Source: a virus
Length of the DNA: 64,000 nucleotides
IMG/VR virus record: IMGVR_UViG_3300022752_003639
Location: 74,458 to 138,457 of that record
Direction: 5' to 3' (one strand)
Shown here one piece after another: positions 5,975-21,045 of this stretch (its first letter is position 1; each line of letters starts with the position of its first letter). The position numbers and the translations under genes were made by a program. The notes under the pieces were generated by a model. It was not told the origin of the DNA. It ran no database searches and saw only the letters and a program-made list of their open reading frames with translations.

Positions 5975-8647
5975 ATGAGTTATGTAGATGCCATCTGGGA
6001 TCGTGATAATGATATTATCAAAGTTGTTGAACGTGATCCTAAAAAGGGTCGCTTATTTCAAGAATACCCTGCAAGATATATATTTTACTACCCGGATTCA
6101 AAAGGTAAGTATAAATCAATTTACGGTGATAATCTTTCTAGAGTATTAACCAAATCATTTAAAGACTTTCAAAAAGAACAAAGAATACATAATAGTCATA
6201 GACTATTTGAAAGTGACATAAACCCCATATTTAGAACACTAGAAGAAAATTATTTAGGTAAAGAAGAACCTAGACTAAATGTAGCATTTTTTGACATCGA
6301 AGTCGATTTTGATCCAGAAAGAGGATACGCTAGTCCAGACGATCCCTTTATGCCTATCACAGCTATTACAGTAAACCTACAGTGGTTAAATGTTTTAATA
6401 ACATTGGCTATCCCTCCAAAAAGTCTTACATTAGAAGAGGCAAAAGAACAGGTAAAAGATTTTCCAAATACACACTTATTTGAATCTGAAGGAGAAATGT
6501 TAGAAACATTCTTAGAATTATTAGATGATGTAGATGTATTGAGTGGATGGAATTCAGAAGGCTATGATATTCCCTATACAGTAAACAGAGTAACTAAAGT
6601 ATTAAGTAAAGAAGATACTAGAAGATTTTGTTTATGGGATCAATTTCCTAAAAAAAGAGAATACGAAAAATACGGCAAGACCGCCGTGACATATGATCTT
6701 ATAGGTCGAGTACATTTGGATTCTTTAGAGCTTTATAGAAAATATACCTATGAAGAACGTCACACTTTTAGATTAGATGCTATAGGTGAAATTGAAATTG
6801 GAGAAAATAAAACAGTTTACGAAGGAACACTTGACCAATTATATAATAACGACTTTCGTAAATTTATAGAATACAACAGACAAGACGTTGCTTTATTAGA
6901 CAAATTAGACCGAAAACTTAAATTTATCGACCTTGCCAATAAAATTGCTCATGAAAACACAGTATTATTACAGACTACTCTAGGAGCTGTAGCAGTAACC
7001 GAGCAAGCAATTATTAATGAAGCACATCATCGAGGTATGATGGTTCCTAGTAGAGCTAAACGCGATGAGCTAGGTGATACAGGAGCAGCGGGCGCATATG
7101 TAGCCTACCCTAAAAAAGGACTTCATGAATGGATCGGAAGCATTGACATCAATAGTCTATATCCAAGTGTAATTCGTGCATTAAACATGGGACCGGAGAC
7201 CATTGTAGGTCAACTACGCCCAGAAAAAACTGAAAAATATATAAACGAACAAATATCTATACATAAAAAAACATTCGCAGGGGCCTGGGAAGGAATGTTT
7301 GGAACGCTAGAATACGAAGCAGTAATTAAAAAAGATAGAGCATTTGAAATTGTTATAGATTGGGAAAACAACGAAACCAGTGTGTTATCTGCGGCAGAGG
7401 TACATAATTTAATTTTTGAAAGTAATAACCATTGGATGCTCAGTGCAAATGGAACTATTTTTACCTATGAAAAAGAAGGCATAATTCCTGGCCTACTGAA
7501 ACGATGGTATGCTGAACGTAAAGAATTACAAGGAAAATTAAAATTAGCTAAAGATGCGGAAAATATTATAGAAGAAGAGTATTGGGACAAGAGACAATTA
7601 GTTAAAAAGATTAATCTTAATAGCTTGTACGGCGCTATTTTAAATCCAGGATGTAGATTTTTTGACAAGCGTATAGGTCAATCAACAACATTAACAGGTA
7701 GATCTATAGCAAAACACATGGCAGGAACAGTAAATGAAATTGTAACAGGTGAGTTTGATCATGTAGGGAAAGCTATAATCTATGGTGATACAGACAGTTG
7801 TTACTTCAGTGCATACTCTACATTAAAAAGAGATATCGAAAAAGGACAAGTACCTTGGAATAAAGATATTATAATTCAACTTTATAATCAAATCGCAGAT
7901 AAAGTAAATCAAACATTCCCAGAATTTATGCTTGCAGCATTTCATTGTCCCAAATCTAGAGGAGATGTTATTAAAGGGGGCAGAGAAATTGTTGCAAGCA
8001 AAGGTTTGTTTATCACTAAAAAACGCTATGCAGTTCTATATTATGATAAGGACGGAAAACGCACAGACGTAGACGGAAAAACTGGCAAAATTAAAGCTAT
8101 GGGCTTAGACTTAAAAAGAAGTGACACTCCTGAATTTATGCAAAAATTCCTAGAAGAAATTCTTGGCAAAGTTCTACACGGCGAACAAGAAAAAGAAATT
8201 TTAGATAGAATTAGTGAATTTCGAACAGAATTCAAAGCTCGCCCAGGTTGGGAAAAAGGTTCGCCTAAACGTGCTAATAATATTACAGAATACGAAGCTA
8301 AAGAAAAGAAAGCAGGCAAGGCTAATATGCCGGGACATGTACGTGCAAGCATAAATTGGAATACTTTACGAAGAATGAATGGAGACAAATATTCCATGCA
8401 AATTGTTGATGGTATGAAAGTTATAGTTTGTAAAGTAAAAGACAATCCATTAGGATTTACCAGCGTGGCCTATCCTACAGACGAATTACGGTTACCAAAA
8501 TGGTTTCAAGAATTACCATTCGACCATTCAGAAATGGAAACAACAATCATTAACAATAAATTAGACAATCTCATCGGTGTTCTAGAATGGGATTTAGAAA
8601 GCACTACACAGGATAATACTTTTGGCAAGTTATTTTCTTTTGAATGA
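5975..8647 (+). CDS. g43: Family B DNA polymerase (T4 gp43-like) with 3'-5' exonuclease
   Basis: Motifs FFDIEVD, SIDINSLYPS, KKINLNSLYG and YGDTDS. Start ATG 5975 follows an SD. No intein seen. Confidence 0.97.
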   Translation: MSYVDAIWDRDNDIIKVVERDPKKGRLFQEYPARYIFYYPDSKGKYKSIYGDNLSRVLTKSFKDFQKEQRIHNSHRLFESDINPIFRTLEENYLGKEEPRLNVAFFDIEVDFDPERGYASPDDPFMPITAITVNLQWLNVLITLAIPPKSLTLEEAKEQVKDFPNTHLFESEGEMLETFLELLDDVDVLSGWNSEGYDIPYTVNRVTKVLSKEDTRRFCLWDQFPKKREYEKYGKTAVTYDLIGRVHLDSLELYRKYTYEERHTFRLDAIGEIEIGENKTVYEGTLDQLYNNDFRKFIEYNRQDVALLDKLDRKLKFIDLANKIAHENTVLLQTTLGAVAVTEQAIINEAHHRGMMVPSRAKRDELGDTGAAGAYVAYPKKGLHEWIGSIDINSLYPSVIRALNMGPETIVGQLRPEKTEKYINEQISIHKKTFAGAWEGMFGTLEYEAVIKKDRAFEIVIDWENNETSVLSAAEVHNLIFESNNHWMLSANGTIFTYEKEGIIPGLLKRWYAERKELQGKLKLAKDAENIIEEEYWDKRQLVKKINLNSLYGAILNPGCRFFDKRIGQSTTLTGRSIAKHMAGTVNEIVTGEFDHVGKAIIYGDTDSCYFSAYSTLKRDIEKGQVPWNKDIIIQLYNQIADKVNQTFPEFMLAAFHCPKSRGDVIKGGREIVASKGLFITKKRYAVLYYDKDGKRTDVDGKTGKIKAMGLDLKRSDTPEFMQKFLEEILGKVLHGEQEKEILDRISEFRTEFKARPGWEKGSPKRANNITEYEAKEKKAGKANMPGHVRASINWNTLRRMNGDKYSMQIVDGMKVIVCKVKDNPLGFTSVAYPTDELRLPKWFQELPFDHSEMETTIINNKLDNLIGVLEWDLESTTQDNTFGKLFSFE

Positions 8648-8656
8648 AAATAATAG

Positions 8657-8685
8657 TTGACATTATCCTTAATTCTAAATATAAT
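8657..8685 (+). promoter_or_regulatory. sigma70 promoter
   Basis: Perfect TTGACA-17 bp-TATAAT. Confidence 0.85.
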
Positions 8686-8702
8686 TATACAAAGGAAAAA
8701 TC

Positions 8703-9437
8703 ATGCAAGATATATTAAAAGACATCGTAAGTCATACACATAATCTAGGCTTTCTCAATATTGTCAAAGTCACAGGTGACGAATCTAGTACAAAAATCAA
8801 TAGTATGGCAGATGACAGAACAGTAATTATGTTCGGTGAAACTGCCAACCCATATCCGGAAATGATAGGCGTTTTTGGAATGCCGCAATTGAATAAATTA
8901 AAATATTTGTTAGACTGCCCTGAATATAAAGAAAACGCCAATATAAACATAACACACATTAATAAAAATGGTGTAGATATTCCGTCAGGTATTCATTTTG
9001 TAAACGAAAATGGTGATTTTAAAAACGATTATAAGTTTATGAATACTGAAATTATCAATGAAAAAATTAAAGATATAAAATTTAGAGGCGTAAAATGGGA
9101 CGTAGAGCTAACGCCTACAGTTCAGTCGATACAGAAATTTAATTTCCAAGTTAATGCTAATAATGAACATACAACATTTTTAGCTAAAACAGATGCGGAT
9201 AAATTAGTATTTTCATTTGGCGATGCTAGTAGTCATAGTGGTGAATTTATATTTGCAAACGGAATCACTGGTAAATTAAGCAAAAGCTGGACATGGCCTG
9301 TTTCATCTGTCCTAGCTATTTTGAAAGCAGCAGATGTGAATAATACTAAAATGAGTTTAAGCAATGAAGGTGCTTTACAAATTACTTTAGATAGCGGATT
9401 GGCCACATATCAATATATCATTCCTGCAACAATATGA
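8703..9437 (+). CDS. Probable sliding clamp (gp45-like)
   Basis: 244 aa, alpha/beta pattern, adjacent to the polymerase; size matches gp45. Confidence 0.55.
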   Translation: MQDILKDIVSHTHNLGFLNIVKVTGDESSTKINSMADDRTVIMFGETANPYPEMIGVFGMPQLNKLKYLLDCPEYKENANINITHINKNGVDIPSGIHFVNENGDFKNDYKFMNTEIINEKIKDIKFRGVKWDVELTPTVQSIQKFNFQVNANNEHTTFLAKTDADKLVFSFGDASSHSGEFIFANGITGKLSKSWTWPVSSVLAILKAADVNNTKMSLSNEGALQITLDSGLATYQYIIPATI

Positions 9438-9802
9438 TTAGATCAGTCTCGGGAGGGCCTCATATACAGGTAGATGGTGGTCATCCATCTGCCTCGTATA
9501 TCTATTCTGAAAATGCAAATAAACCCATGGCCGGTATGGTAAGATATATCAACAACCAATTTGAAGTATACGACGGTAATACATGGCATCAGATATCAGT
9601 CGGACATACTACCGTAAAATTAACAAACGAAGCCAGTAAGGCCATTGACTGGGCATTAAGACAAATGCAGGAACAGGCTGACATTGAAAAACTGGCAAAA
9701 GACTACCCTGCGGTCAAACTGGCACACGATAATCTTAAACGTGCTGCCGAACAATTAAAGGCCACTATTATATTGAGTAAAGATGAGCAATCCACCAATT
9801 AA
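9434..9802 (+). CDS. Hypothetical protein
   Basis: ORF coupled by ATGA overlap to the upstream gene. Confidence 0.6.
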   Translation: MIRSVSGGPHIQVDGGHPSASYIYSENANKPMAGMVRYINNQFEVYDGNTWHQISVGHTTVKLTNEASKAIDWALRQMQEQADIEKLAKDYPAVKLAHDNLKRAAEQLKATIILSKDEQSTN

Positions 9803-11336
9803 CCTAACACCATTACAGAAAGACTATGCTGTATTTTTACCAGCAGTTAGTTCTTTTTATTCAACCTATGTAGCCAAACAAAAATTAGAGGAATTCGTTC
9901 CTAAGCATCGTATCCCTAAAGGATTTGATCGTGATATTGAAGGTATGAACTTTCTAAATCCAGAACAAGGCTATTTTACCTACAAATATGCTTTATACTC
10001 TGCAGGACATGCACAATTAGACTTGAATAAAAGTATAGTACAAGAAAGTATGATTCAACAGCGTGATAGAAACGCAACAATGATTCTAGGAGATTCCGGT
10101 GGATACCAGATTGGTAAAGGTGTGCTAAAGTTTGATTGGCTAAATTTTGAAGGAGCAGAAGCAAACAAGGTTCGTCAACGTATTCTAGAGTGGTTAGAAC
10201 TAACTGCTGATTGGTCAATGATGCTAGATGTTCCTACTTGGGCCTGTGATCATATTCATAGTCCAAAGACGGGTCTTAAAACGTTTGATGACTGTTTAGA
10301 TAAGACCAAATTTAACAATGAATACTTTCTAAAAAATAGACTAGGTCAAACTAAATGGCTTAACGTGCTGCAAGGATCAGATTGGGATACCGCAGAGAAA
10401 TGGTACGACGGTGTTAAAGAATTTTCAGATCCTGCCGTATGGGGGGATAAGGCTGCAGAAGGGTGGGCCTTTGGTGGTGCTAATATGTGTAAAATGGACA
10501 TTACATTAAAGCGTCTAATGACCTTACGTGAAGATGGTCTACTAAAAAATAAAAACTGGATTCACTTCTTAGGTACAGCCCAACTTGATTGGTCCTGTTA
10601 TCTTACCTCTATTCAACGACAAATTAGAAAGCACATTAATGAAGAAATTACCATATCTTTTGACTGCGCCTCACCGTTTATTGCAACCGCCCACGGACTT
10701 GTCTATACAAACGCACAGCACACGCCGAAACGTTGGAGCGTTATTATGGACAAGGCCCCAGACAACAAAACACTTGCAAGAAGCACAATCCCATTTCCGT
10801 TCGAATCAGAAATAGGTCGCAGGCTTAACATGGGAGATATCTGCTGGTATGCTCCTGGAGATCTTAATAAAATTAAAAAAGAAGGTAAAACGTCGTGGGA
10901 TAGTTTTTCATATGCACTAATGATGGGGCATAATGTATACTGCCATATTGTTGCCGTACAACGTGCCCAGCAATTAATGGATATTGAAGTTGCTAAAACA
11001 CAACAAAAAATAAATTGGCGTTTTTGGAAAAAAGTAAAATCCGGCGATATGAGCGACGAATATAGTGACTGGGTTCCTAGAAATGTGCTATACTTCAATA
11101 ACTTTGTAGAAGATTTATTTAATACAAAAACGAAAAAAGAAGCATTTGAGATGATTGAAGAAGCTGGATCATTTTTAAGATCGTTAGAAGGTGCAAGATT
11201 ACGAGGTGGCCCTGCTCAGAACAATTTCAACACTTTCTTTGAATTTGAAGAAGTAACCAAAGCAGAAGAGATTGATTTAGAAAACCCTGATGATGATAAA
11301 TTAAGGGCTCTTGAAGAAGAAATTATGGAGAATTAA
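9783..11336 (+). CDS. dpdA: TGT-fold guanine transglycosylase, DpdA-like (7-deazaguanine insertion into DNA)
   Basis: TGT motif ILGDSGGYQ, plus MLDVP, VLQG, WAFGG and IHFLG. It is near queE and a QueD-like gene. Confidence 0.8.
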   Translation: MSNPPINLTPLQKDYAVFLPAVSSFYSTYVAKQKLEEFVPKHRIPKGFDRDIEGMNFLNPEQGYFTYKYALYSAGHAQLDLNKSIVQESMIQQRDRNATMILGDSGGYQIGKGVLKFDWLNFEGAEANKVRQRILEWLELTADWSMMLDVPTWACDHIHSPKTGLKTFDDCLDKTKFNNEYFLKNRLGQTKWLNVLQGSDWDTAEKWYDGVKEFSDPAVWGDKAAEGWAFGGANMCKMDITLKRLMTLREDGLLKNKNWIHFLGTAQLDWSCYLTSIQRQIRKHINEEITISFDCASPFIATAHGLVYTNAQHTPKRWSVIMDKAPDNKTLARSTIPFPFESEIGRRLNMGDICWYAPGDLNKIKKEGKTSWDSFSYALMMGHNVYCHIVAVQRAQQLMDIEVAKTQQKINWRFWKKVKSGDMSDEYSDWVPRNVLYFNNFVEDLFNTKTKKEAFEMIEEAGSFLRSLEGARLRGGPAQNNFNTFFEFEEVTKAEEIDLENPDDDKLRALEEEIMEN

Positions 11337-11337
11337 C

Positions 11338-11766
11338 ATGGCAATATGGCGTATTACAAATTATCAAAAAAAGTCGGCTGATGAAATTCAAACCTGGCGT
11401 AAAGGTGATGATGAATTTCAAAAAACAGAAACATACCGTTGGGGTGTTTGGGAATGTGAAAGTGATGAAAAGCCTGTAGTTGATTTAAACAACCCAGGTG
11501 GCTGGAGTCCAGATAATGCAGATCAAGAAGATTATACCTGGGAAATGGTTGAAATGATTGATGGTTGTTATGTGGATTGGGATTTTATAGGCTGTCCGGA
11601 TATGGATGAGGAAGAACAAGAACGTATTCAAGAACTTTGGAACGAAAACTATTACGAAGGATTAGAAGGCGAAGACTGGATTAATGACGAAACTGAATAT
11701 TGGCTTCATGGCCCATTGAAATTAACCAATGTAGATACTGGTGAAGAATGGCATGGAGAAGACTGA
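11338..11766 (+). CDS. Highly acidic, Trp-rich hypothetical protein
   Basis: ATG 11338 directly follows the dpdA stop; D/E-rich. Confidence 0.65.
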   Translation: MAIWRITNYQKKSADEIQTWRKGDDEFQKTETYRWGVWECESDEKPVVDLNNPGGWSPDNADQEDYTWEMVEMIDGCYVDWDFIGCPDMDEEEQERIQELWNENYYEGLEGEDWINDETEYWLHGPLKLTNVDTGEEWHGED

Positions 11767-11998
11767 CTCAATTTTAGAAAAACTTATCTACAGGGCAGGG
11801 TTCAGCTCAACCTTTGAACGTGTAAGGCTAGAAAGACTAATTTGGTTAGCTGCCCGCGATATTCAACATATTGTAACAGACGAGCAATGGCAACAAATTG
11901 TAAATCATTTATCTATTCCAGAAGATTTTAATAAACGAACCAACAATAATTATCTTACAAAAAAATCCGCAGATCAACCAGAAGGATATTTAGAATGA
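11741..11998 (+). CDS. Hypothetical protein
   Basis: Fits operon packing. Confidence 0.5.
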   Translation: MKNGMEKTDSILEKLIYRAGFSSTFERVRLERLIWLAARDIQHIVTDEQWQQIVNHLSIPEDFNKRTNNNYLTKKSADQPEGYLE

Positions 11999-12294
11999 AA
12001 TCTGTTCATGAACTTAGTGATGAAGAATTAGAAAGTTGTATAGATGGTTCTTTTCACATTGAAACTTTAAGAGAAATTCTTAGTAAACAGGGTGTAGTAG
12101 ATTTAGAAGGTTGGGTAGATCCGGAAATTTTTGCAGATTGGTTCGCTCAGTCTCTCGTAGATATAATAGGCGTAGAAGAAGATACACCAGAATGGACTGA
12201 AGCATTTGATAACAATTGGAATTGGGGTTATGACGTTGGTGATAATATCAATTCCTTTATTAGTGATAATTTTAAGGATAAAAAAGATGCCTAA
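11995..12294 (+). CDS. Acidic hypothetical protein
   Basis: ATGA overlap with the upstream gene; D/E-rich. Confidence 0.6.
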   Translation: MKSVHELSDEELESCIDGSFHIETLREILSKQGVVDLEGWVDPEIFADWFAQSLVDIIGVEEDTPEWTEAFDNNWNWGYDVGDNINSFISDNFKDKKDA

Positions 12295-12487
12295 GAAAAA
12301 AACAGAACCAACTAGTAAATTAGCAAAAAATAAAAAAACAGATGCAAAAAAAGAAAGTAACGAATATACTATTGAGACAAAAGATGAGTCAGGAAAATTA
12401 TCATTTGATATAGATTGGGATAGGCTTAAAATTCATGTCCAAAATGCCTTGACTGACTTTGAAAAAACAAGTAAAATTAAAACATGA
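12287..12487 (+). CDS. Small hypothetical protein (MPKKKTEP...)
   Basis: Start reassigned to ATG 12287, after AAGGA. Confidence 0.5.
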   Translation: MPKKKTEPTSKLAKNKKTDAKKESNEYTIETKDESGKLSFDIDWDRLKIHVQNALTDFEKTSKIKT

Positions 12488-12996
12488 AAAGAAATTATTC
12501 CTCTGATTGTTTAGATGATGTTGTTTTCTTTGTAGGAACAGAAATCGAACATACTCCTGCTTATGGGTTGAATACACTCTTTGTAGTTGGTATTCAAGGA
12601 TATGACGAAATTTTGTATAGGCTAGAAAACATAGAACATATTTTCTTTGGAGCTAATCATAGCTTTAACCCGCAAACTACAGAAGAATGGAACCGCTGGG
12701 AAAACATGATTATGTATTTTCTAGAAAAAGATTATTTGTGCTCATTAGACATTCCTATTAACCAAGTTGAAGAGTTTCATGAAGGGGGTCTTTGTGAACA
12801 TAACAACTTTATTCCACAAATTCGTGTGCCAATTCCTTATATTAAATTATGGAATTACAACACAATGCTCAAAATTGATGATAAAGATTTTGATGCAACT
12901 AATCCCGGTGTGTGGTCACACAGTCTACACTCACTAATGGAACGTAGTAAATTTACAGACTGGAAACAATATAATAAGGATGTAGTAATAAAATGA
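12484..12996 (+). CDS. Conserved-looking alpha/beta protein in the deazaguanine cluster
   Basis: Enzyme-like pattern FFVGTEIEHTPAYGLNTLFVVG...HIFFGANHS; function not recognised. Confidence 0.65.
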   Translation: MKRNYSSDCLDDVVFFVGTEIEHTPAYGLNTLFVVGIQGYDEILYRLENIEHIFFGANHSFNPQTTEEWNRWENMIMYFLEKDYLCSLDIPINQVEEFHEGGLCEHNNFIPQIRVPIPYIKLWNYNTMLKIDDKDFDATNPGVWSHSLHSLMERSKFTDWKQYNKDVVIK

Positions 12997-13181
12997 TTAA
13001 TAGCAAATTAGCAAATCAACTTAGTTCTGAAGAAAAACTTTTTAAAATGTTAGAAAGCATTGACTGGAAACTTTGGGAAATGTATAACATTTTAAAGGCA
13101 CAGACTGAAGGAGCAAAGGTATCAACTAAAGCAGTTTCAGCAGTTAAAAAAACTAAAACATCTGCAAAAACAGACAACTAA
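12993..13181 (+). CDS. Hypothetical protein
   Basis: Coupled ORF, 62 aa. Confidence 0.55.
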   Translation: MINSKLANQLSSEEKLFKMLESIDWKLWEMYNILKAQTEGAKVSTKAVSAVKKTKTSAKTDN

Positions 13182-13183
13182 AA

Positions 13184-13573
13184 ATGATTATTAAACAAGA
13201 CATACGACCAAGTAAAATGATCTGGATTACTTTTAGTAAAGAAGGTATCCATAAATATCCAGCAGCACTAACTGATCCCAACTTAGCAACAGGAGATGAA
13301 TACGATGTTTCGTTCCTTGGTTATCCGCATCGTCATATATTCCATTTTAGGGTGTGGATTAATGTACTTCATAACGATCGCGAAATCGAATTCATACAGT
13401 TCAAGAGATTCTGTGAGCGTCTCCTGCGTGAGGGGGTAGTACAATTAGATTATAAAAGTTGCGAAATGATGAGCGATGATCTATATGCTCAAATCATCGA
13501 AAAGTATCCTGGCCGTGAGGTATGGATTGAAGTCTCCGAAGATGGAGAAAATGGTAGTTTCATTAAATATTAA
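13184..13573 (+). CDS. QueD-like T-fold protein, DpdL-like (predicted CDG decarboxylase)
   Basis: LGYPHRHIF matches the LxxxHRHxF motif I recall for DpdL. Also REIEF and KSCEM motifs. Confidence 0.7.
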   Translation: MIIKQDIRPSKMIWITFSKEGIHKYPAALTDPNLATGDEYDVSFLGYPHRHIFHFRVWINVLHNDREIEFIQFKRFCERLLREGVVQLDYKSCEMMSDDLYAQIIEKYPGREVWIEVSEDGENGSFIKY

Positions 13574-13596
13574 TCTTTTTTAGGAAATAGACAAAC

Positions 13597-13821
13597 ATGG
13601 CCCTCAGTGCATCTGTTCAAAAAACTCTTCGTATGAAACCAGAAGTTAGTAAAATCTTTGATGACCTTGAAGCATGGCACGATTATTGTAGAATGGAATT
13701 AATTGCATTTAATCCGGCCCATCTTTATAAATCTAGAGAATATAAGGAATGGTCTAAAGACAGAAGAATTTCCAAAAACCGTAAACTAAAAAGTAAAAAT
13801 GGCAAAAATATTTCTAGTTGA
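13597..13821 (+). CDS. Hypothetical protein
   Basis: 74-aa ORF with SD-like upstream sequence. Confidence 0.55.
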   Translation: MALSASVQKTLRMKPEVSKIFDDLEAWHDYCRMELIAFNPAHLYKSREYKEWSKDRRISKNRKLKSKNGKNISS

Positions 13822-14899
13822 CCTAGAAGCTGTTGAAACACGTTATACAGCACAATGGAAAAGTCATGTTCCCAAAATTCTCAAAGCACAAGGACATCAA
13901 GTTCACGTTATCTCTGGTCCTGAAGATATTCCTAGTGCCACTACTCCTGGTGCCTTTCTTAACTTTGGGGGGACTAATATCTATAAGTCTCGCCAAGTTG
14001 AAGAGATTGCTCGCCTTTTTACCTCCGGAACCATTGTGGCCGGCGACCATTTTCTTTTTACTGATGCTTGGCATCCAGGCATTATAAATTTAAAATATAT
14101 GAGTTCTTTACTGAATATACCAGTAAAGATTCACGCACTATGGCACGCCGGATCATATGATCCCCAAGACTTTTTAGGTAGGCTTATTGGAAACGCTAGT
14201 TGGGTAAGACATTCAGAAAAGGCATTTTTTGAAGCTATCGACTTTAACTATTTTGCCACAGACTTTCATATTGAAATGTTTGTGCGTAATTTATTAAATG
14301 ACGGACTAAGCGAGAATCCTTGGTTAGATGAGGATTTAGATGATGCCTTAAAAGGACGATGGGCTGGGATCGTACGCTCAGGTTGGCCTATGGAATATAT
14401 GGCAGAAACGTTAGCGCCATACAAAGGTATAAAAAAACGTGACCTAATCCTATTTCCACATCGAATAGCACCTGAGAAACAGATTGAAATCTTTTGGGAT
14501 CTTAGATTGATACTTCCGCAATATGATTTTGTAATATGTCAAGAACAACCACTTACCAAAGCTCAATATCATAAATTATTGAGTGAGGCTAAGATTGTGT
14601 TTAGTGCTAACCTACAAGAAACCTTGGGCATCAGTTGTTATGAGGGTGCCCTGGTAGATGCTATTCCGATGGTGCCAGATCGGTTATCATATACAGAAAT
14701 GTACTATGAAGGATTTAAGTATCCCAGTCATTGGACAGAAAGTTTTGATAGTTATATGAGATATCGTGCTGATTTGGTTCATCATATCATTGTCACTATG
14801 ACACACTATGAAAAACGTCTGCCGCAGTTGGCTAAACAAACTGATGATTTAACAGCGAGGTTTTTCTCATGTCAGGCATTACTGAACAACTTGAATTAG
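13799..14899 (+). CDS. GT-B glycosyltransferase (GT4-like)
   Basis: FPHRIAPEKQ and ETLGISCYEG resemble the GT4 ExFGxxxxE motif; two Rossmann-like halves. Confidence 0.8.
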   Translation: MAKIFLVDLEAVETRYTAQWKSHVPKILKAQGHQVHVISGPEDIPSATTPGAFLNFGGTNIYKSRQVEEIARLFTSGTIVAGDHFLFTDAWHPGIINLKYMSSLLNIPVKIHALWHAGSYDPQDFLGRLIGNASWVRHSEKAFFEAIDFNYFATDFHIEMFVRNLLNDGLSENPWLDEDLDDALKGRWAGIVRSGWPMEYMAETLAPYKGIKKRDLILFPHRIAPEKQIEIFWDLRLILPQYDFVICQEQPLTKAQYHKLLSEAKIVFSANLQETLGISCYEGALVDAIPMVPDRLSYTEMYYEGFKYPSHWTESFDSYMRYRADLVHHIIVTMTHYEKRLPQLAKQTDDLTARFFSCQALLNNLN

Positions 14900-15129
14900 A
14901 CTTTGAAGAGGAATGGCCCGTGCGTGATTACTACGATGATGGTCCTGTGACCATAGACGATTACATTGTAGAATATAAAACATTTGAACAGGTCAGTTGG
15001 TGGAGGCTGAAGCAAATGCTGGAACGGTGGCCTGCCATGCGTAAGAGTTGGGAAGCATTTATAGTTGATTATAATGTATGCTTGGCTACTCTGAAATCAG
15101 AAGAAGACAATGATGATATCCCTTTCTAA
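14869..15129 (+). CDS. Acidic hypothetical protein
   Basis: Fits operon packing. Confidence 0.5.
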   Translation: MSGITEQLELDFEEEWPVRDYYDDGPVTIDDYIVEYKTFEQVSWWRLKQMLERWPAMRKSWEAFIVDYNVCLATLKSEEDNDDIPF

Positions 15130-15583
15130 ATTTATCTTAAATACATTAGATCGAATGGGTCGAAAACGTATTGTATTGGATAGACAAAGTGCTGAACCAT
15201 ATCTCGAACGCTATTATATTTTTCTCCGCGACAGAAAACGGTTTCCTTTCAATTTGTTCTTGCACAAGTTTCTTAAATCAGATCCCGATGACGTGCATGA
15301 TCATCCATGGCCTTATGCTACTCTAATTCTCAAAGGCGGGTATTGGGAATACAAACCCGTTTTCAATGAGAAAGGAATAAAAGTTGGAGAACAGAAACAT
15401 TGGTGCTCACCTGGTCATTTTCGCACTAGCTCTGCTACTAGTTTTCATCGTATCGAGTTAGAACCAGGTATTGATTGCTGGACATTATTCATGCCCGGTC
15501 CTACTAAACGTGAATGGGGATTTCTTGTTAATAATCGATGGATTCATAACGAGCAATACCTCCAAGAGAGAGCTATAAAATGA
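15110..15583 (+). CDS. Cupin-fold metalloprotein
   Basis: HKFLKSDPDDVHDHPW...E and FHRIEL resemble His-ligand cupin motifs. Confidence 0.7.
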   Translation: MMISLSKFILNTLDRMGRKRIVLDRQSAEPYLERYYIFLRDRKRFPFNLFLHKFLKSDPDDVHDHPWPYATLILKGGYWEYKPVFNEKGIKVGEQKHWCSPGHFRTSSATSFHRIELEPGIDCWTLFMPGPTKREWGFLVNNRWIHNEQYLQERAIK

Positions 15584-15753
15584 AAATAGGAACCAAATGG
15601 TATGGAGCCAATGGTGATCTATTTGAAATAGATGACTTAAGATCTATAAATGGAGAAACTTGGGTTTTTTATACTAATACCTTTACTATGAAATCTTTTA
15701 GTACCCTCCTGCCTGCATTTTTACAGAGATTTCGCCGTTATGATGACAAATAA
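15580..15753 (+). CDS. 57-aa hypothetical protein (MKIGTKWYGANG...)
   Basis: ATG 15580 overlaps the cupin stop; open to TAA 15751-15753. Not in the ORF track. Confidence 0.55.
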   Translation: MKIGTKWYGANGDLFEIDDLRSINGETWVFYTNTFTMKSFSTLLPAFLQRFRRYDDK

Positions 15754-15922
15754 AAATGTTTTTGAAACTATCCTTAGTAAGTACAACTCTAAATCCTTAA
15801 ATGAAATTAGATACGAATTGTATGAGGATATAGTAGAAGAATGTGCAAGATCAGTGGAACATATACGTGTATGGGACAGTAATCTAGGTGATCATATTCG
15901 AAGTAAGATGGGAACTTTATGA
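15740..15922 (+). CDS. Hypothetical protein
   Basis: 60-aa coupled ORF. Confidence 0.5.
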
Positions 15923-16935
15923 GAATAGAAGAGGATATCAAGTTAGACTTTAGGGATGTTCTGATTCGTCCCAAACGTAGCACACTAGGCAGTCGTCGTG
16001 ATGTAGATCTAATAAGATTTTACAAATTTAAGCATAGTAGATATGAATATGAAGGCATACCTATTATGGCTGCTAATATGGACGGCGTGGGCACAATGGC
16101 AATGGCACTAGCTTTAGGTCGGCATAGACTGTTCACCTGTCTTATCAAAACATATAATAAAGACATAGAAAACTTTGCTGAATTTAGAGTATGTAAGGAT
16201 CATTATGCCGTAAGCACAGGTACCAGTTATGAAGACTTTCGTAACTTAAACACCATTGTAACAGGCATCGGCGCTCAATTTATCTGTATAGATGTGGCTA
16301 ATGGCTACAGTGAAAACTTTGGTGACTTTGTTGAAGAAGTAAGAAATCGTTGGCCAGACAAAACTATTATTGCTGGTAATGTTGTTACTGGTGATATGAC
16401 ACAGGAGTTAATTTTACGTGGAGCAGATATCGTTAAAGTTGGTATTGGTCCTGGCAGTGTATGTACTACTCGTGTACAAACTGGTGTTGGTTATCCTCAA
16501 CTCAGTGCAATCATCGAGTGTGCCGATGCGGCTCACGGTCTCGGTGGGCACATTATTGCTGACGGTGGCTGCACTTGCCCCGGAGACGTTGCAAAGGCTT
16601 TTGGTGCTGGCGCAGACTTTGTGATGCTAGGCGGTATGCTGGCTGGACACGATGAAGGTGGTGGCACTGTGGAAAACGGAAAGGTGACCTTCTATGGTAT
16701 GAGTAGTGATACCGCTATGGAACGTCATCACGGAGGCGTAGCAGAATATCGTAGTTCAGAAGGACGTACAGTGAATATTCCATATCGTGGTCCTGTAACA
16801 AAGACTGTACTAGACATTTTAGGTGGGCTGCGTAGTGCCTGTACCTATGTTGGAGCAGAAACTCTTAAACAACTGCCTAAATGCACAACATTTATTAGGG
16901 TCAATAGACAAATTAATGATGTTTTTATTAAGTAA
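15919..16935 (+). CDS. guaC: GMP reductase
   Basis: [46 protein letters not shown] and FYGMSS; lacks CBS domains. Confidence 0.95.
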
Positions 16936-17803
16936 CTGTTAGTAGGTTTTTATCTTTATCACTTACACAGTAGACCATTCCGCACTTGTGTAGTTCAACA
17001 GGATATGCGAATGTTGAATTCCAAATATTACCTAAAGGGCGATTCCCACATTCACTTCCTGATGCCCATCCAGTTTCTTGAATATAGATAGTATCTATGC
17101 CTGCACTACATAATTGACCTGTATAACTAGGATTTTTTATTTGTAAAATTTCAATTTTTTCATTAAATGTTTTTTTTGACATTTCTTTTTTTTCTTCCAA
17201 TACAGACTTACCTAATAATTTTATAATTTGTGCATCGGTATATGGTATCCACCCTAACGCTTGTTCTCCGTTTTTGTACAAAAGTTGTTTATTAACAATT
17301 ATGTTAAACTCATTCTGAATACGCTCTAAACGATACAAATCGTTATCGAAATAATCAGGTCTTATCGGAACATTTACAACAATATTTTTTTTATTTTTTT
17401 GAAACGCCTCTATAATAAACTTGATAAGATTATAATTTTGCCAGTAATGAAAAGTTAAATGTAGTTTGTCAACATGAGGTTCAATAGCCCACCAATCTAA
17501 CCACATTTTACCGCCATTGGTAATTAATTCAATATTTCCATTATTATCTTTACATATTTTTAAAATTTCTGGAAAATCGTGAAACTCCAATGGTTCGCCT
17601 CCATCAAATGTCCAATCGATAAGTCTACCTAAATTGCTGAAATGTGTAATTGTATATGATACAAATTTTTTGTATTCTTCTACAGATCTAGGTTCTTCAC
17701 CACCCCAATACTTGGTAGGACAATATGAACATCCTCCAGAGCAGTAATTATGTAATGCCCACCAAATCTTAGTTCTTTTTAATTCTCTTCTTGCGATATT
17801 CAT
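16928..17803 (-). CDS. Radical SAM protein with C-terminal Cys-rich (SPASM/twitch-like) region
   Basis: CSGGCSYC (CxxxCxxC), GGEP, ITNG and C-terminal Cys residues. It is the only minus-strand gene in the + block. Confidence 0.88.
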
Positions 17804-17804
17804 G

Positions 17805-17833
17805 TTGACAAACTCTAAATAAACATATATAAT
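17805..17833 (+). promoter_or_regulatory. sigma70 promoter for queE
   Basis: Perfect TTGACA-17 bp-TATAAT. Confidence 0.85.
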
Positions 17834-17874
17834 ATATTTAAACTAATTAGGATTTTAACAACAGTGAGAAAAAA

Positions 17875-18741
17875 ATGAGTAAACTTAAAGTATCAGAACT
17901 TTTTTACAGTGTGCAAGGTGAAGGAAGATACATGGGTGTTCCCAGTGTGTTCCTTCGTGTATTTGGTTGTAATTTTACATGCGACGGATTTGGAATGCCA
18001 AAAGGAGAAAAATCCAATGAACGACATATTATCGCCGAAAATATTTCAAGCATTACACAATACAGAGATCTACCTTTGGTTCATACAGGGTGCGATTCTT
18101 ATGCTAGTTGGGATCCTAAGTTTAAGGATCTTAGTCCTGTGCTCGAAACAGATAGTATTGTGGACACAATCATGGATATGCTCCCTCACAAAGAATGGAG
18201 GAAAGAACACCTAGTTATAACAGGAGGAGAACCACTTCTAGGTTGGCAGCGTAGTTATCCTGACTTACTTAATCATCCTAAAATGAAAGGACTTACAGAA
18301 ATAACGTTTGAAACAAACGGGACTCAAGAAATTTCACGGAATTTTAGTGAATATCTTAATGATTGGCTAGCGCCAGATGATCAAACACAATTCGAAAACT
18401 GGAGAGAATTAACCTTTTCAGTAAGTCCTAAATTATCAGTTTCTGGAGAACGTTGGGAAGATGCCATAAAACCAGATATCGTAGTTTATTATGAATCATT
18501 TGGCTATACATACTTAAAATTTGTAGTAGCAAGTAACGAAGATGTAGCAGAAGCAGAAGATGCGGTAAACGAGTATAGAAAGGCTGGATTTAAAGGACCA
18601 GTTTACATAATGCCATTAGGCGGTGTTGAATCAGTATATAGCTTAAATAATAAAAATGTAGCACTCATGGCTATGAAAAAAGGATGGCGTTATAGTGATA
18701 GGCTTCAGGTGCCGCTCTTTAAGAACGCATGGTCGACATGA
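17875..18741 (+). CDS. queE: 7-carboxy-7-deazaguanine synthase
   Basis: ELFYSVQGEG, VFLRVFGCNFTC...CD (long insert between cluster Cys residues), ITGGEP, ETNG and SVSPK. Confidence 0.93.
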   Translation: MSKLKVSELFYSVQGEGRYMGVPSVFLRVFGCNFTCDGFGMPKGEKSNERHIIAENISSITQYRDLPLVHTGCDSYASWDPKFKDLSPVLETDSIVDTIMDMLPHKEWRKEHLVITGGEPLLGWQRSYPDLLNHPKMKGLTEITFETNGTQEISRNFSEYLNDWLAPDDQTQFENWRELTFSVSPKLSVSGERWEDAIKPDIVVYYESFGYTYLKFVVASNEDVAEAEDAVNEYRKAGFKGPVYIMPLGGVESVYSLNNKNVALMAMKKGWRYSDRLQVPLFKNAWST

Positions 18742-18986
18742 CACAACCGTTAGATATTCCAGAATTTGTCAAAATATATTTCCTTGTAAAACAGGATGGT
18801 ATGATGTTTTCCCCTACAGGTAATTCAGGAGGAAATTATTTAGGCACTGGATTTTATTTGACAAGAACAGAAGCAGAACATACTAGAACAATGGAATACC
18901 TAAGAGAAACTGATTCTAAAACAAAGGTTCATATATTTGAATTAGATGTTCCCAACCCGGCGTATAAACATGAAAAATCTACTTAA
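18738..18986 (+). CDS. Hypothetical protein
   Basis: ATGA overlap with the queE stop. Confidence 0.55.
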   Translation: MTQPLDIPEFVKIYFLVKQDGMMFSPTGNSGGNYLGTGFYLTRTEAEHTRTMEYLRETDSKTKVHIFELDVPNPAYKHEKST

Positions 18987-19365
18987 AAAAATATTCGGCA
19001 TAACCGAAATGGAAAATGCCATTAAAGAAACCAGAGCCGCCGCAGAAGCAGCAGAAGTTAAATCAGATTTAACTCCGAAAGATCTAGCTACTCAAAACAA
19101 GGAACCCTGGGTAACTGTTATTAATACCCATGTAAATAAAGAAAATATTAGAAATGGTTTTTTTGAACTTGACTGGAATGAATATTTTGTGCTACAATTA
19201 AGGACTGCGGGATTTCGTGGCGACACCGACGAAGACATTGTAAATCAATGGTTTACAGAACTTTGTAAAAATGTAGCCGCAGAAGAAGGTATAGACATGA
19301 GCCGTAGAAATACAGGCTATATAAACGTAAACAATATTGGGAACGGACGTTCAGAGGTTAGCTAA
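18970..19365 (+). CDS. Conserved hypothetical phage protein
   Basis: Start reassigned to ATG 18970; contains GFFELDWNEYF. Confidence 0.6.
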   Translation: MKNLLKKIFGITEMENAIKETRAAAEAAEVKSDLTPKDLATQNKEPWVTVINTHVNKENIRNGFFELDWNEYFVLQLRTAGFRGDTDEDIVNQWFTELCKNVAAEEGIDMSRRNTGYINVNNIGNGRSEVS

Positions 19366-20357
19366 TGGCCAAAACATATCTACTGATTGATACTGCTAAT
19401 GTTTTTTTTAGAGCAAGGCATGTCATGCGTGGCAACTTAGAGGATAAGATAGGACTTAGTATTCATACGGTACTAAGTAGTGTTAGGAAAGCATGGAGAG
19501 ATTTTAATGGCGATCATGTTGTATTCTGCTTAGAAGGTAGATCATGGCGCAAAGACCATTATGAACCTTACAAACGACAACGTACCGAAGCTCGCGCGGC
19601 ATTGAGCCCTAGAGAAGCAGAAGAAGAAAAAATCTTCTGGGAAACATTTGATCAGTTTAAAGAATTTGTAATTAATAAAACAAATTCGACTGTATTGCAT
19701 CATCCACAATTAGAAGCGGACGATCTTATTGCGGGCTGGATTGATTTACATCCTAAAGATAATCATGTAATTATTTCTACCGATGGGGACTTCGCACAAC
19801 TTATCTCTCCAAATGTCAAACAATATAACGGCGTGATGGAGGTCACTACTACCCACTTAGGGTATTTCGATTCCAAAGGCAAACCAGTCACAGATAAAAA
19901 AACAAAGTTACCTAAAGATCCGCCTGACCCGCAATGGTTATTATTTGAAAAATGTATGAGGGGAGATACTTCAGACAACATTTTTAGTGCTTATCCTGGG
20001 GTACGAGAAAAAGGAACAAAAAATAAAGTTGGTCTAAGAGAAGCATTTGCAGATAGAAACTCAAAAGGATATAACTGGAATAATCTCATGTTACAAAGAT
20101 GGGTTGACCATGAAGGAAAAGAACATCGTGTGTTAGATGACTATACAAGAAATAAACTGTTGTGTGATTTGAGAGGACAACCAGAAGAAATAAGAAATCT
20201 TATTTTTGATGTAATAAATGAATACATAAACCAAAATAAAGATGTTCCACAGGTCGGAATTAGACTTCTGAAATTTTGTTCTACTTTTGATTTACAAAAA
20301 ATTACAGATCAAATTCAAAGTTATTCTGAACCATTAAATTCAAGGTATATTGTATGA
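19365..20357 (+). CDS. rnh: 5'-3' exonuclease / T4 RNase H-like (FEN family)
   Basis: LLIDTAN, EADDLIA, STDGDFAQL and GDTSDNI. Confidence 0.9.
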   Translation: MAKTYLLIDTANVFFRARHVMRGNLEDKIGLSIHTVLSSVRKAWRDFNGDHVVFCLEGRSWRKDHYEPYKRQRTEARAALSPREAEEEKIFWETFDQFKEFVINKTNSTVLHHPQLEADDLIAGWIDLHPKDNHVIISTDGDFAQLISPNVKQYNGVMEVTTTHLGYFDSKGKPVTDKKTKLPKDPPDPQWLLFEKCMRGDTSDNIFSAYPGVREKGTKNKVGLREAFADRNSKGYNWNNLMLQRWVDHEGKEHRVLDDYTRNKLLCDLRGQPEEIRNLIFDVINEYINQNKDVPQVGIRLLKFCSTFDLQKITDQIQSYSEPLNSRYIV

Positions 20358-20830
20358 ATGCTGTTAGTAAAACTTTAATTCCAAATCAAGAATGGATCAT
20401 AGAAGATCATGGAAAAAAAATAGGTTCTGTTTATAAAAAGAAAAAATCCTATTATTTTATTAGGAAAGGTAAAACAATTAGTTTTCCTAATTTAGATGAG
20501 ATAAAAAATAAATTAGGAGTTTCAATTTCTGAAAACACAGCTTCTAAGAAAAATAATAACGATGACAATACATATTCAATTTATGATTATCCATGTGGAG
20601 TAAAACCATATAACACTTTATATAATATAAAAGAAAAATTGCCATTGTTTTCTAAGAGCTCTAAAAGCCAAAGTTTGTATTGTGCAGGTTACTATGTTAT
20701 TAAATTTCGTAAAGGTTGGGTTAAAAGTTTCTGTCCAAAATTAATTACTTTAGAAAGATATCCTTATTACGGACCATTTAAACATGAACAGGAAATGAAA
20801 CAAATGTTATCTACCTTAAATAAATCATGA
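20354..20830 (+). CDS. Conserved hypothetical protein
   Basis: Coupled ORF, 158 aa. Confidence 0.6.
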   Translation: MNAVSKTLIPNQEWIIEDHGKKIGSVYKKKKSYYFIRKGKTISFPNLDEIKNKLGVSISENTASKKNNNDDNTYSIYDYPCGVKPYNTLYNIKEKLPLFSKSSKSQSLYCAGYYVIKFRKGWVKSFCPKLITLERYPYYGPFKHEQEMKQMLSTLNKS

Positions 20831-21045
20831 AACAATTAAACACTATACCTATTGAAAATTTTTTAAATAAAGCTCGATTAGCAGTGAAAAGCAGTCAAAG
20901 AAACTTAACTTTGCCAATAGAAGAAGTAACGGAATTGTCAAATAGTCTAAGCGTAGTAATGACTAGGTTGGCAGGTGAATTAGATCAAATTAAAGAATCT
21001 AATAACCAACCTATACAAATTAGAGTAGATGGTGGCAAATTCTAA
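20827..21045 (+). CDS. Hypothetical protein
   Basis: Coupled ORF, 72 aa. Confidence 0.55.
   Translation: MKQLNTIPIENFLNKARLAVKSSQRNLTLPIEEVTELSNSLSVVMTRLAGELDQIKESNNQPIQIRVDGGKF

Follow-up and report, generated by a model that had tools for sequence, protein, structure and literature searches.

The stretch of DNA analysed here (hereafter, the window) is 64,000 nucleotides long and corresponds to bases 74458-138457 of the 138,457-base IMG/VR virus record IMGVR_UViG_3300022752_003639. CheckV estimated this record to be about 35% complete, the window being therefore a fragment of the genome of an uncultured jumbo phage. Window coordinates are used throughout; those preceded by C1 refer to the whole 138-kb record. 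Downstream of the genes for a DNA polymerase and a sliding clamp-like protein, the window contains a run of plus-strand genes, with one antisense gene inside, that includes relatives of enzymes known to make 7-deazaguanines and to insert them into DNA (Table 1). The region showed no megablast match to cultured phages. A first-pass annotation, made from the sequence alone, had read eight of these genes as a DNA-modification cluster: those for a DpdA-like tRNA-guanine transglycosylase (TGT), a 170-residue enzyme-like protein (p170), a QueD-like protein, a glycosyltransferase (GT), a cupin, GuaC, a second radical S-adenosylmethionine (SAM) enzyme and QueE. All eight were found where it had placed them, and the identities of the last four were supported by profile matches (NF003470 for GuaC, PHROG 4786 for the cupin, PF04055 for the radical SAM enzyme and PHROG 2076 for QueE). 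Two perfect sigma70-like sites, both resting on the consensus match only, frame the gene run.

Table 1. Features of the gene run in the window (aa, amino acid residues; ORF, open reading frame)
Feature	Coordinates	Strand	Basis or remarks
Sigma70-type promoter-like site, TTGACA-17-TATAAT	8657..8685	+	12/12 consensus matches; ahead of the clamp/DpdA-like run
Sliding clamp-like protein, 244 aa	8703..9437	+	Adjoins the module on its left; conserved
Divergent TGT-fold transglycosylase (DpdA-like), 517 aa	9783..11336	+	Fold and invariant Asp motifs
p170, enzyme-like alpha/beta protein, 170 aa	12484..12996	+	Conserved ORF
DpdL (QueD paralogue), 129 aa	13184..13573	+	LGYPHRHIF; proposed 7-carboxy-7-deazaguanine (CDG) decarboxylase
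Conserved small ORF, 74 aa	13597..13821	+	Between DpdL and GT; 27/32 loci
GT4-like (GT-B type) glycosyltransferase, 366 aa	13799..14899	+	EX7E motif
Cupin/cysteine dioxygenase-like protein, 157 aa	15110..15583	+	PHROG 4786 'cysteine dioxygenase', E 2e-38
GuaC GMP reductase	15919..16935	+	NF003470, 542 bits (cut-off 397)
Radical SAM enzyme, 291 aa, Cys-rich C-terminus	16928..17803	-	PF04055, 31.2 bits; CSGGCSYC
Sigma70-type promoter-like site	17805..17833	+	12/12 consensus matches; ahead of queE
QueE-like CDG synthase (radical SAM)	17875..18741	+	PHROG 2076, E 3e-52

The 517-aa protein gave no match in Pfam, PHROG or NCBIfam, nor among PDB sequences. The TGT profile PF01702 matched neither this protein nor any other in the 138-kb record at E ≤ 1, and was matched by two of 61 relatives (best E 0.011). 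The AlphaFold2 model of the protein (predicted local distance difference test, pLDDT, 91.4) retrieved tRNA-guanine transglycosylases in Foldseek (E 1e-6, probability 1.0) and, in VIA, structure 2ash_B with a Z of 18.5 (root-mean-square deviation 4.5, 303 residues), while the TGTs of Zymomonas mobilis, humans and archaea scored Z values of about 17.5. The motifs GDSGGxQ, LDxP and SxD(C/S) were invariant across 61 members of the family, as were the aspartates D104 (in DSGG), D149 (in LDVP) and D294 (in SFDC). A hidden Markov model (HMM) alignment placed GDSGGfQ onto TDSGGYQ of the Z. mobilis TGT (D102) and LDvP onto FDEC (D156); SFDC aligned with ISYDS of the DpdA of phage ACP17. D294 was equated with the Z. 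mobilis nucleophile D280 from motif and position, not from superposed coordinates. Downstream of D294 there is a single partly conserved Cys, and the HN of 'LLMxHN' aligns with 'TEHN' of TGTs. The fold and the retained catalytic Asp bear out the TGT/DpdA-like identity first assigned to this protein.

The family to which the 517-aa protein belongs is very large: clustering at 90% identity gives more than 7500 groups, and at 50% identity 912. Among viral predicted structures (BFVD), the best matches came from its own clade (E 4e-29) and included the 596-aa A0A2I7SB39, which has the same length as the homologue in Vibrio phage 2.275.O. These were followed by the 'tRNA guanine transglycosylase' of Achromobacter phage Motura (5e-12), a protein of Vibrio phage nt-1 (2e-9), classical phage 'queuine tRNA-ribosyltransferases' (about 1e-4) and, at rank 27, the DpdA3 of phage phiST (1e-3). 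Profile comparison with hhalign gave a probability of 96.7% for the ACP17 DpdA and of 82%, over 83 columns, for the phiST DpdA3. Single distant DpdA-like proteins used as queries retrieved no viral loci. By these comparisons, the 517-aa protein tentatively falls into a branch of the DpdA family of its own, and a very large one; this structural placement of the clade is new from the window. The homologue in Vibrio phage 2.275.O adjoins genes for QueF, a YhhQ-like transporter, QueC, a glutamine amidotransferase (GATase) and FolE. From its fold, its catalytic Asp and its gene context, the 517-aa enzyme is predicted to exchange guanine and 7-deazaguanine in DNA.

The QueD-like protein singled out earlier for its LxxxHRHxF motif does contain it, as LGYPHRHIF; this is the signature that separates DpdL from QueD, which has CxxxHGH instead (Hutinet, Cui et al., Nucleic Acids Research 2023, PMC10516641). 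The protein is 33% identical (E 2e-9) to the phiST DpdL CGPG_00067, and 54–68% identical to homologues in phages ACP17 (54%), PA5oct (56%) and Phosso. The role of DpdL as a CDG decarboxylase is a published prediction (PMC10516641). The QueE-like protein scored 43–54 bits against the NCBIfam QueE models, well under their cut-offs. Its cluster motif is split, with CNFTC followed after some 37 residues by the C in HTGCDSY, a spacing unusual among QueE variants. As had been remarked, the window contains no QueC, QueF, FolE or canonical QueD, but the record encodes FolE (C1:21746-22486) and a PF01242 QueD (C1:38394-38957) upstream of it. A search of all 138 kb, estimated at about 35% of the genome, gave no QueC match. 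With FolE, QueD and QueE present and QueC not found, the phage can, on the present fragment, make CDG but not preQ0. The record thus contains the DpdL-type gene set, as known from phage phiST: FolE, QueD, QueE and a DpdA-like protein, with no QueC. A search for a preQ1 riboswitch yielded no Rfam match at E ≤ 1 upstream of queD and none at window positions 8000-21000.

The 366-aa protein is predicted to be a GT4-type glycosyltransferase with a GT-B fold. It contains an EX7E motif (E274...E282) and the sequence HRxxPEKQ; E274, E282, R222 and K227 were invariant in 13 GT sequences, including those of ACP17, PA5oct and Phosso, and these conserved residues agree with the earlier assignment. Motifs in the N-terminal domain, which would bind the acceptor, were also invariant from ACP17 to the phage of the window. 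Across the 32 related loci described below, QETxG...E was present in 29 GTs and a DX7E variant in the remaining three. The profile PF00534 (Glycos_transf_1) gave weak matches in six of 13 relatives (best E 2.5e-4), and one relative matched PF20706 (GT4-conflict); in an Atlas neighbour cluster, PF00534 was assigned to 29% of the members. A profile of the GT matched no PDB sequence. The 370-aa gene that follows the DpdA-like gene of Vibrio phage 2.275.O was considered as a counterpart of this GT and rejected; it showed a weak amidoligase match instead. The 74-aa ORF preceding the GT gene gave no family match.

The p170 protein, first described as enzyme-like and of no recognizable kind, is a real and conserved ORF with no known family or fold. 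It has 5233 relatives; E20, E22, D89, K130, D132 and D133 are its invariant acidic and basic residues. No match was obtained in Pfam, PHROG, NCBIfam, PADLOC or Atlas. Its model (pLDDT 87) gave a best Foldseek E of 0.016 and, in the wide VIA search, a best PDB Z of 6.3, which is background level; a resemblance to the QueE/partial-barrel fold (Z about 5.4) was not counted as a match. It is homologous neither to the phiST protein CGPG_00066 nor to the bacterial YhhQ-like protein described below. Homologues were identified in ACP17 (gp122, 31% identity), where the gene adjoins that of DpdA, and in PA5oct (gp121, 42%). The fold-orphan status of p170 and its ACP17 and PA5oct homologues are new from this window.

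The association of these genes was analysed in related viral loci. Eighty were fetched, with DpdA-like proteins 68–85% identical to that of the window, and those 31 that reach from the DpdA-like gene through to queE were compared over this interval; together with the window, these make up the 32 loci referred to here. DpdA-like and QueE proteins were encoded in all 31 related contigs. DpdL, always with HRHxF, and the GT were present in 32 of 32 loci and p170 in 31, whereas the cupin was found in 26, the antisense radical SAM gene in seven and GuaC in the window only. Other genes occupied the same slot in the relatives: FolE (22 loci), a Gpt-like purine phosphoribosyltransferase (PRTase; 21), an HIT protein (14), an HhH-GPD glycosylase (eight) and a dCMP deaminase (six). 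Examples of the PRTase, HIT and HhH-GPD types lie at L065:9810-10358, L088:17047-17436 and L056:13788-14207 in the relatives and at L001:15946-16380 in PA5oct; none of the three was found in the 138-kb record of the window phage. Since the relatives fill it with differing genes, this slot is a hotspot for swappable nucleotide-metabolism genes, GuaC being one insert. The recurrence of the PRTase, HIT and HhH-GPD genes suggests guanine salvage or a nucleotide-level branch.

Similar arrangements were found in cultured phages. In ACP17, genes for QueD and FolE are followed by gp122 (p170), gp123 (TGT-like DpdA), gp124 (GT), gp125 (DpdL) and gp126 (QueE). PA5oct encodes gp168 (DpdA-like, 43% identity), gp167 (GT), gp166 (DpdL), gp164 (a short epimerase-like protein), gp163 (PRTase) and gp162 (QueE), while Xanthomonas phage X1 has, in a row, the GT, a 'queuine tRNA-ribosyltransferase', DpdL and QueE. 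The GT adjoins or lies near DpdL in Phosso, BUCT-ZZ01, BUDD and BCSR5 as well. Further, phage contigs binned in metagenome-assembled genomes keep the full gene order with DpdA-like proteins only 40–46% identical to that of the window. A GT was not detectable in six DpdL lineages (RHph_I1_18, Ahp1, Bakedbeans, D479, Cellulophaga phages and MA9V-3). In Rhizobium phage RHph_I1_18, the DpdL gene (55% identity) comes after FolE and is followed by that of a macro-domain (Appr-1-p processing) protein, not by a GT, an arrangement that may represent another variant of the DpdL pathway. These comparisons support reading the region as a DpdL-type cluster for the modification of DNA with 7-deazaguanines. 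They also bear on the co-occurrence that the first-pass annotation had put forward as a check: the GT and p170 are tied to DpdL and the cluster, but the cupin is less constant and its family is also found outside deazaguanine clusters.

The linkage extends to bacteria. In three isolate genomes (Pelagibacterium, Devosia and Azospirillum; L101:3036-9029, L102 and L103), a DpdA-like gene, a gene for a YhhQ/Vut_1-like membrane protein and this GT occur together. The trios of Pelagibacterium and Devosia, on contigs of 494–521 kb, adjoin a resolvase/serine recombinase gene and one or two genes of 311–377 codons with no assigned function. No DpdL, QueE or known dpdB-K gene was found within 8 kb of the trio in these genomes. 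The EX7E residues E274 and E282, as well as R222 and K227, are kept in the GT across the phage and bacterial cases. Proteins of the YhhQ family import queuosine precursors, which again ties the DpdA-like/GT pair to deazaguanines. These islands are a candidate bacterial deazaguanine DNA-modification system; the trio with the YhhQ-like protein in bacterial genomes is new from this window.

The cupin, GuaC and the second radical SAM enzyme, all three initially regarded as tailoring enzymes, did not hold that place, and their demotion to accessory genes is new from this window. The cupin, despite its presence in 26 of the 32 close relatives, belongs to a common stand-alone phage family that is represented in 104 phage records, for the most part of mycobacteriophages and Burkholderia phages; among the carriers is a temperate Burkholderia phage of 44 kb whose cupin gene has no deazaguanine genes nearby. 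It is probably an independent accessory gene, and a role as hydroxylase partner of the GT was rejected as unsupported; the order of oxidation followed by glycosylation that had been suggested at first found no direct support. In the PDB the cupin showed only weak cupin matches. GuaC scored above the cut-off of TIGR01305 as well (527 bits; cut-off 492) and shares 65% identity with an enterobacterial GuaC sequence in the phage collection; it looks like a recent capture. Phages carrying GuaC and those carrying DpdL do not overlap. The idea that GuaC provides a deaza-GMP reductase step was rejected as the main reading, since only this locus has it and phage GuaC does not track DpdL. The radical SAM gene is always antisense in the seven loci that contain it; its product could not be assigned to a subfamily and had no match in cultured phages.

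On its left side the module borders a conserved gene. The 244-aa clamp-like protein had no Pfam match, and homologues lie upstream of the DpdA-like gene in PA5oct, in Phosso (annotated as sliding clamp) and in nearly all relatives. Elsewhere in the window, the minus strand at positions 34973-48931 contains one ORF of 4652 aa followed by same-strand ORFs of 1128, 771 and 1147 aa, which probably code for giant virion or tail-associated proteins. Outside the window, at C1:43284-45021, a gene for a sugar-phosphate cyclase of the 3-dehydroquinate (DHQ) synthase family (PF01761, E 7e-36, plus DHQS_C) overlaps that of a short-chain dehydrogenase, next to a UvdE-type UV endonuclease gene; no evidence tying this pair to the GT was found.

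Taken together, the locus is best read as a DpdL-type, QueC-less module for deazaguanine replacement in DNA in which the GT and p170 take part, probably decorating the inserted base; this reading is given a probability of about 0.58. The module would be expressed early and replace guanine in the DNA with a 7-deazaguanine. By homology, FolE and QueD, encoded upstream, plus QueE would make CDG from GTP. DpdL would then convert CDG into 7-deazaguanine, as predicted in the literature, and the TGT-fold enzyme would swap it for guanine in the DNA, as suggested by its fold, catalytic Asp and gene context. Synthesis of CDG by FolE, QueD and QueE, and exchange of G in DNA by DpdA enzymes, have been described in other systems (PMC10516641). 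The GT and p170 would be integral, co-inherited parts of the pathway, most likely acting on the deazaguanine before or after its insertion, with the GT adding a sugar; it is their linkage that points to this step. GuaC in this phage, like the genes for the Gpt-like PRTase, the HIT protein and FolE in its relatives, would be a swappable purine-pool gene; such genes would plausibly recycle the guanine released by the exchange. That the sugar ends up on the inserted base is a tentative proposal, somewhat short of even odds.

Among known systems, the closest is that of phage phiST (FolE, QueD, QueE, DpdL and DpdA3; PMC10516641), which shares a QueC-less CDG pathway, a DpdL with LxxxHRHxF and a TGT-fold DNA transglycosylase encoded beside replication genes. 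However, the phiST transglycosylase has 259 residues rather than 517 and is only remotely related to the present one, no GT is detectable in that phage, the DpdL neighbour CGPG_00066 is not a p170 homologue, and the product is known to be 2'-deoxy-7-deazaguanosine (dDG). The clusters of ACP17 (gp119-gp126) and PA5oct (gp168-gp162) share the DpdA-like protein, the GT (34 and 42% identity, respectively), DpdL, QueE and p170. The ACP17 DpdA, however, belongs to a different branch (21% identity), PA5oct has p170 at a distance and adds the PRTase and the short epimerase-like gene, and neither cluster includes GuaC, a cupin or the antisense radical SAM gene. The alpha- and beta-glucosyltransferases of phage T4, which act on 5-hydroxymethylcytosine in DNA, are an example of GT-B-type phage enzymes linked to base replacement. 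They provide a working analogy for sugar transfer after base insertion, although no sequence similarity to the present GT was detected, the acceptor here would be a purine derivative, and the cluster contains no hydroxymethylase.

Two sets of observations on cultured relatives fit a missing step such as the one proposed for the GT and p170. The dpdA and dpdL genes of ACP17 did not produce dDG in E. coli (PMC10516641). The DNA of PA5oct resists enzymes with GA/GG-containing sites, and this phage is hit by END nucleases, which restrict phages with hypermodified genomes (PMC12191111). Several points, however, weigh against a decorated deazaguanine. The main difficulty lies in the acceptor: an O-glycosyltransferase would find no hydroxyl on plain 7-deazaguanine, and an acceptor must therefore be assumed. 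Either the GT serves another role, or its true substrate is a different one, such as CDG or a p170 or DpdL product. Further, plain dDG is made by phiST, a phage with DpdL in which no GT is detectable, and a GT is therefore not needed for dDG as such. The GT of the window itself had no Pfam GT match, and the TGT zinc site (CxCxxC...H) is absent from the 517-aa protein, with no conserved Cys triad after D294 in the 61 members. In PA5oct, the p170 gene (gp121) is not linked to the cluster, from which 27 kb separate it, and Phosso and X1 gave no p170 match at E ≤ 0.01. QueC may lie elsewhere in the genome, as the record is only about 35% complete. The literature yielded no published DNA chemistry for any phage with this GT, including ACP17 and PA5oct, and no paper on a glycosylated deazaguanine or on the GT-DpdL-DpdA linkage. 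Iyer et al., in 2021, noted PA5oct only as having a 'deazaguanine synthesis/incorporation system'.

Alternatively, the module may make plain dDG, as in phiST, with the GT and p170 either glycosylating some other target, such as a protein, a lipid or another base, or serving the pathway in a way that leaves no sugar on the base. Phage phiST, with DpdL, DpdA3 and no GT, indeed has plain dDG replacing 100% of its G (PMC10516641), 7-deazaguanine offers no obvious O-glycosylation site, and the six DpdL lineages mentioned above have no detectable GT. Even so, many phage lineages that are unrelated to one another, as well as bacterial islands, have the GT beside DpdL and/or DpdA, the invariance of its acceptor-domain motifs extends from ACP17 to the window phage, and the DpdA and DpdL of ACP17 were inactive by themselves (PMC10516641); plain dDG is therefore considered unlikely, with an appreciable residual chance. 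The closest solved structures to the 517-aa protein being tRNA-guanine transglycosylases, it could also modify tRNA (in a queuosine- or archaeosine-type reaction) rather than DNA. This is highly improbable: there is no tRNA gene in the window and no QueC, QueF or QueA, the gene of the enzyme lies in the company of replication genes (those for polymerase, clamp and exonuclease), the DNA of the relative PA5oct shows G-specific resistance to restriction (PMC12191111), and the phage TGT homologues studied so far all act on DNA (PMC10516641).

A further possibility is that the modified base arises at the nucleotide level, much as in tubercidin and toyocamycin biosynthesis: a purine PRTase would make a 7-deaza-GMP analogue from CDG or 7-deazaguanine, GuaC, HIT proteins and kinases would process it, the phage polymerase would incorporate it, and the TGT-like enzyme would be secondary. 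In the tubercidin pathway, GTP cyclohydrolase I (GCH I), carboxytetrahydropterin (CPH4) synthase and a radical SAM enzyme together lead to CDG, which the PRTase TubE couples to phosphoribosyl pyrophosphate (PRPP), a decarboxylase acts, and TubD, a GMP reductase homologue, then deaminates (PMC6112128). The present cluster and its relatives resemble this scheme in GCH I, CPH4 synthase, the QueE-type radical SAM enzyme, the decarboxylation, the GMP reductase homologue and, in relatives, the purine PRTase; they differ in that the antibiotic is a free nucleoside, its pathway has no TGT-fold enzyme and its decarboxylase is of the UbiD type (PMC6112128). The Gpt-like PRTase of 21 of the 31 relatives and of PA5oct (gp163), the HIT protein of 14, the GuaC of the window and the proximity of the module to the DNA polymerase and clamp genes would suit such a route. 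PRTase and GuaC, however, never occur together in the TGT-to-QueE intervals of the 32 loci, and neither a PRTase nor an HIT protein is encoded in the 138-kb record, itself an incomplete genome. GuaC scores above the NCBIfam equivalog cut-off for GMP reductase and has the 65% identity to an enterobacterial GuaC mentioned above, the TGT-like enzyme, with its catalytic Asp retained, is encoded in every one of these loci, and salvage of released guanine would explain PRTase and GuaC equally well. The nucleotide-level route thus appears distinctly unlikely, and base exchange in DNA with participation of the GT and p170 remains the preferred reading.

In its most specific form, this reading would place a glycosylated 7-deazaguanine in the DNA of PA5oct, ACP17, X1 and the very abundant clade studied here. 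The base would be made by way of a new DpdA branch, a dedicated GT4 enzyme and p170, and the DpdA-like/GT pair with a YhhQ-like importer would be the bacterial version; this is put forward tentatively, at a little less than an even chance. To our knowledge, eight 7-deazaguanine derivatives are known in DNA, none of which bears a sugar. A GT that is a fixed part of the pathway in thousands of phage sequences from the environment predicts a modification of a ninth kind. If the prediction is true, a glycosylated deazaguanine would, as far as is known, be the first purine in DNA to bear a sugar. Such a base would also explain the failure of ACP17 dpdA and dpdL in E. coli, and would hint at the identity of the G modification in PA5oct, a candidate therapy phage. 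The reading can be tested directly in cultured phages. In addition, p170 and the clade of the 517-aa DpdA-like protein are large families that had no annotation at all. Such a modification would bear on how phages evade restriction, CRISPR and END nucleases.

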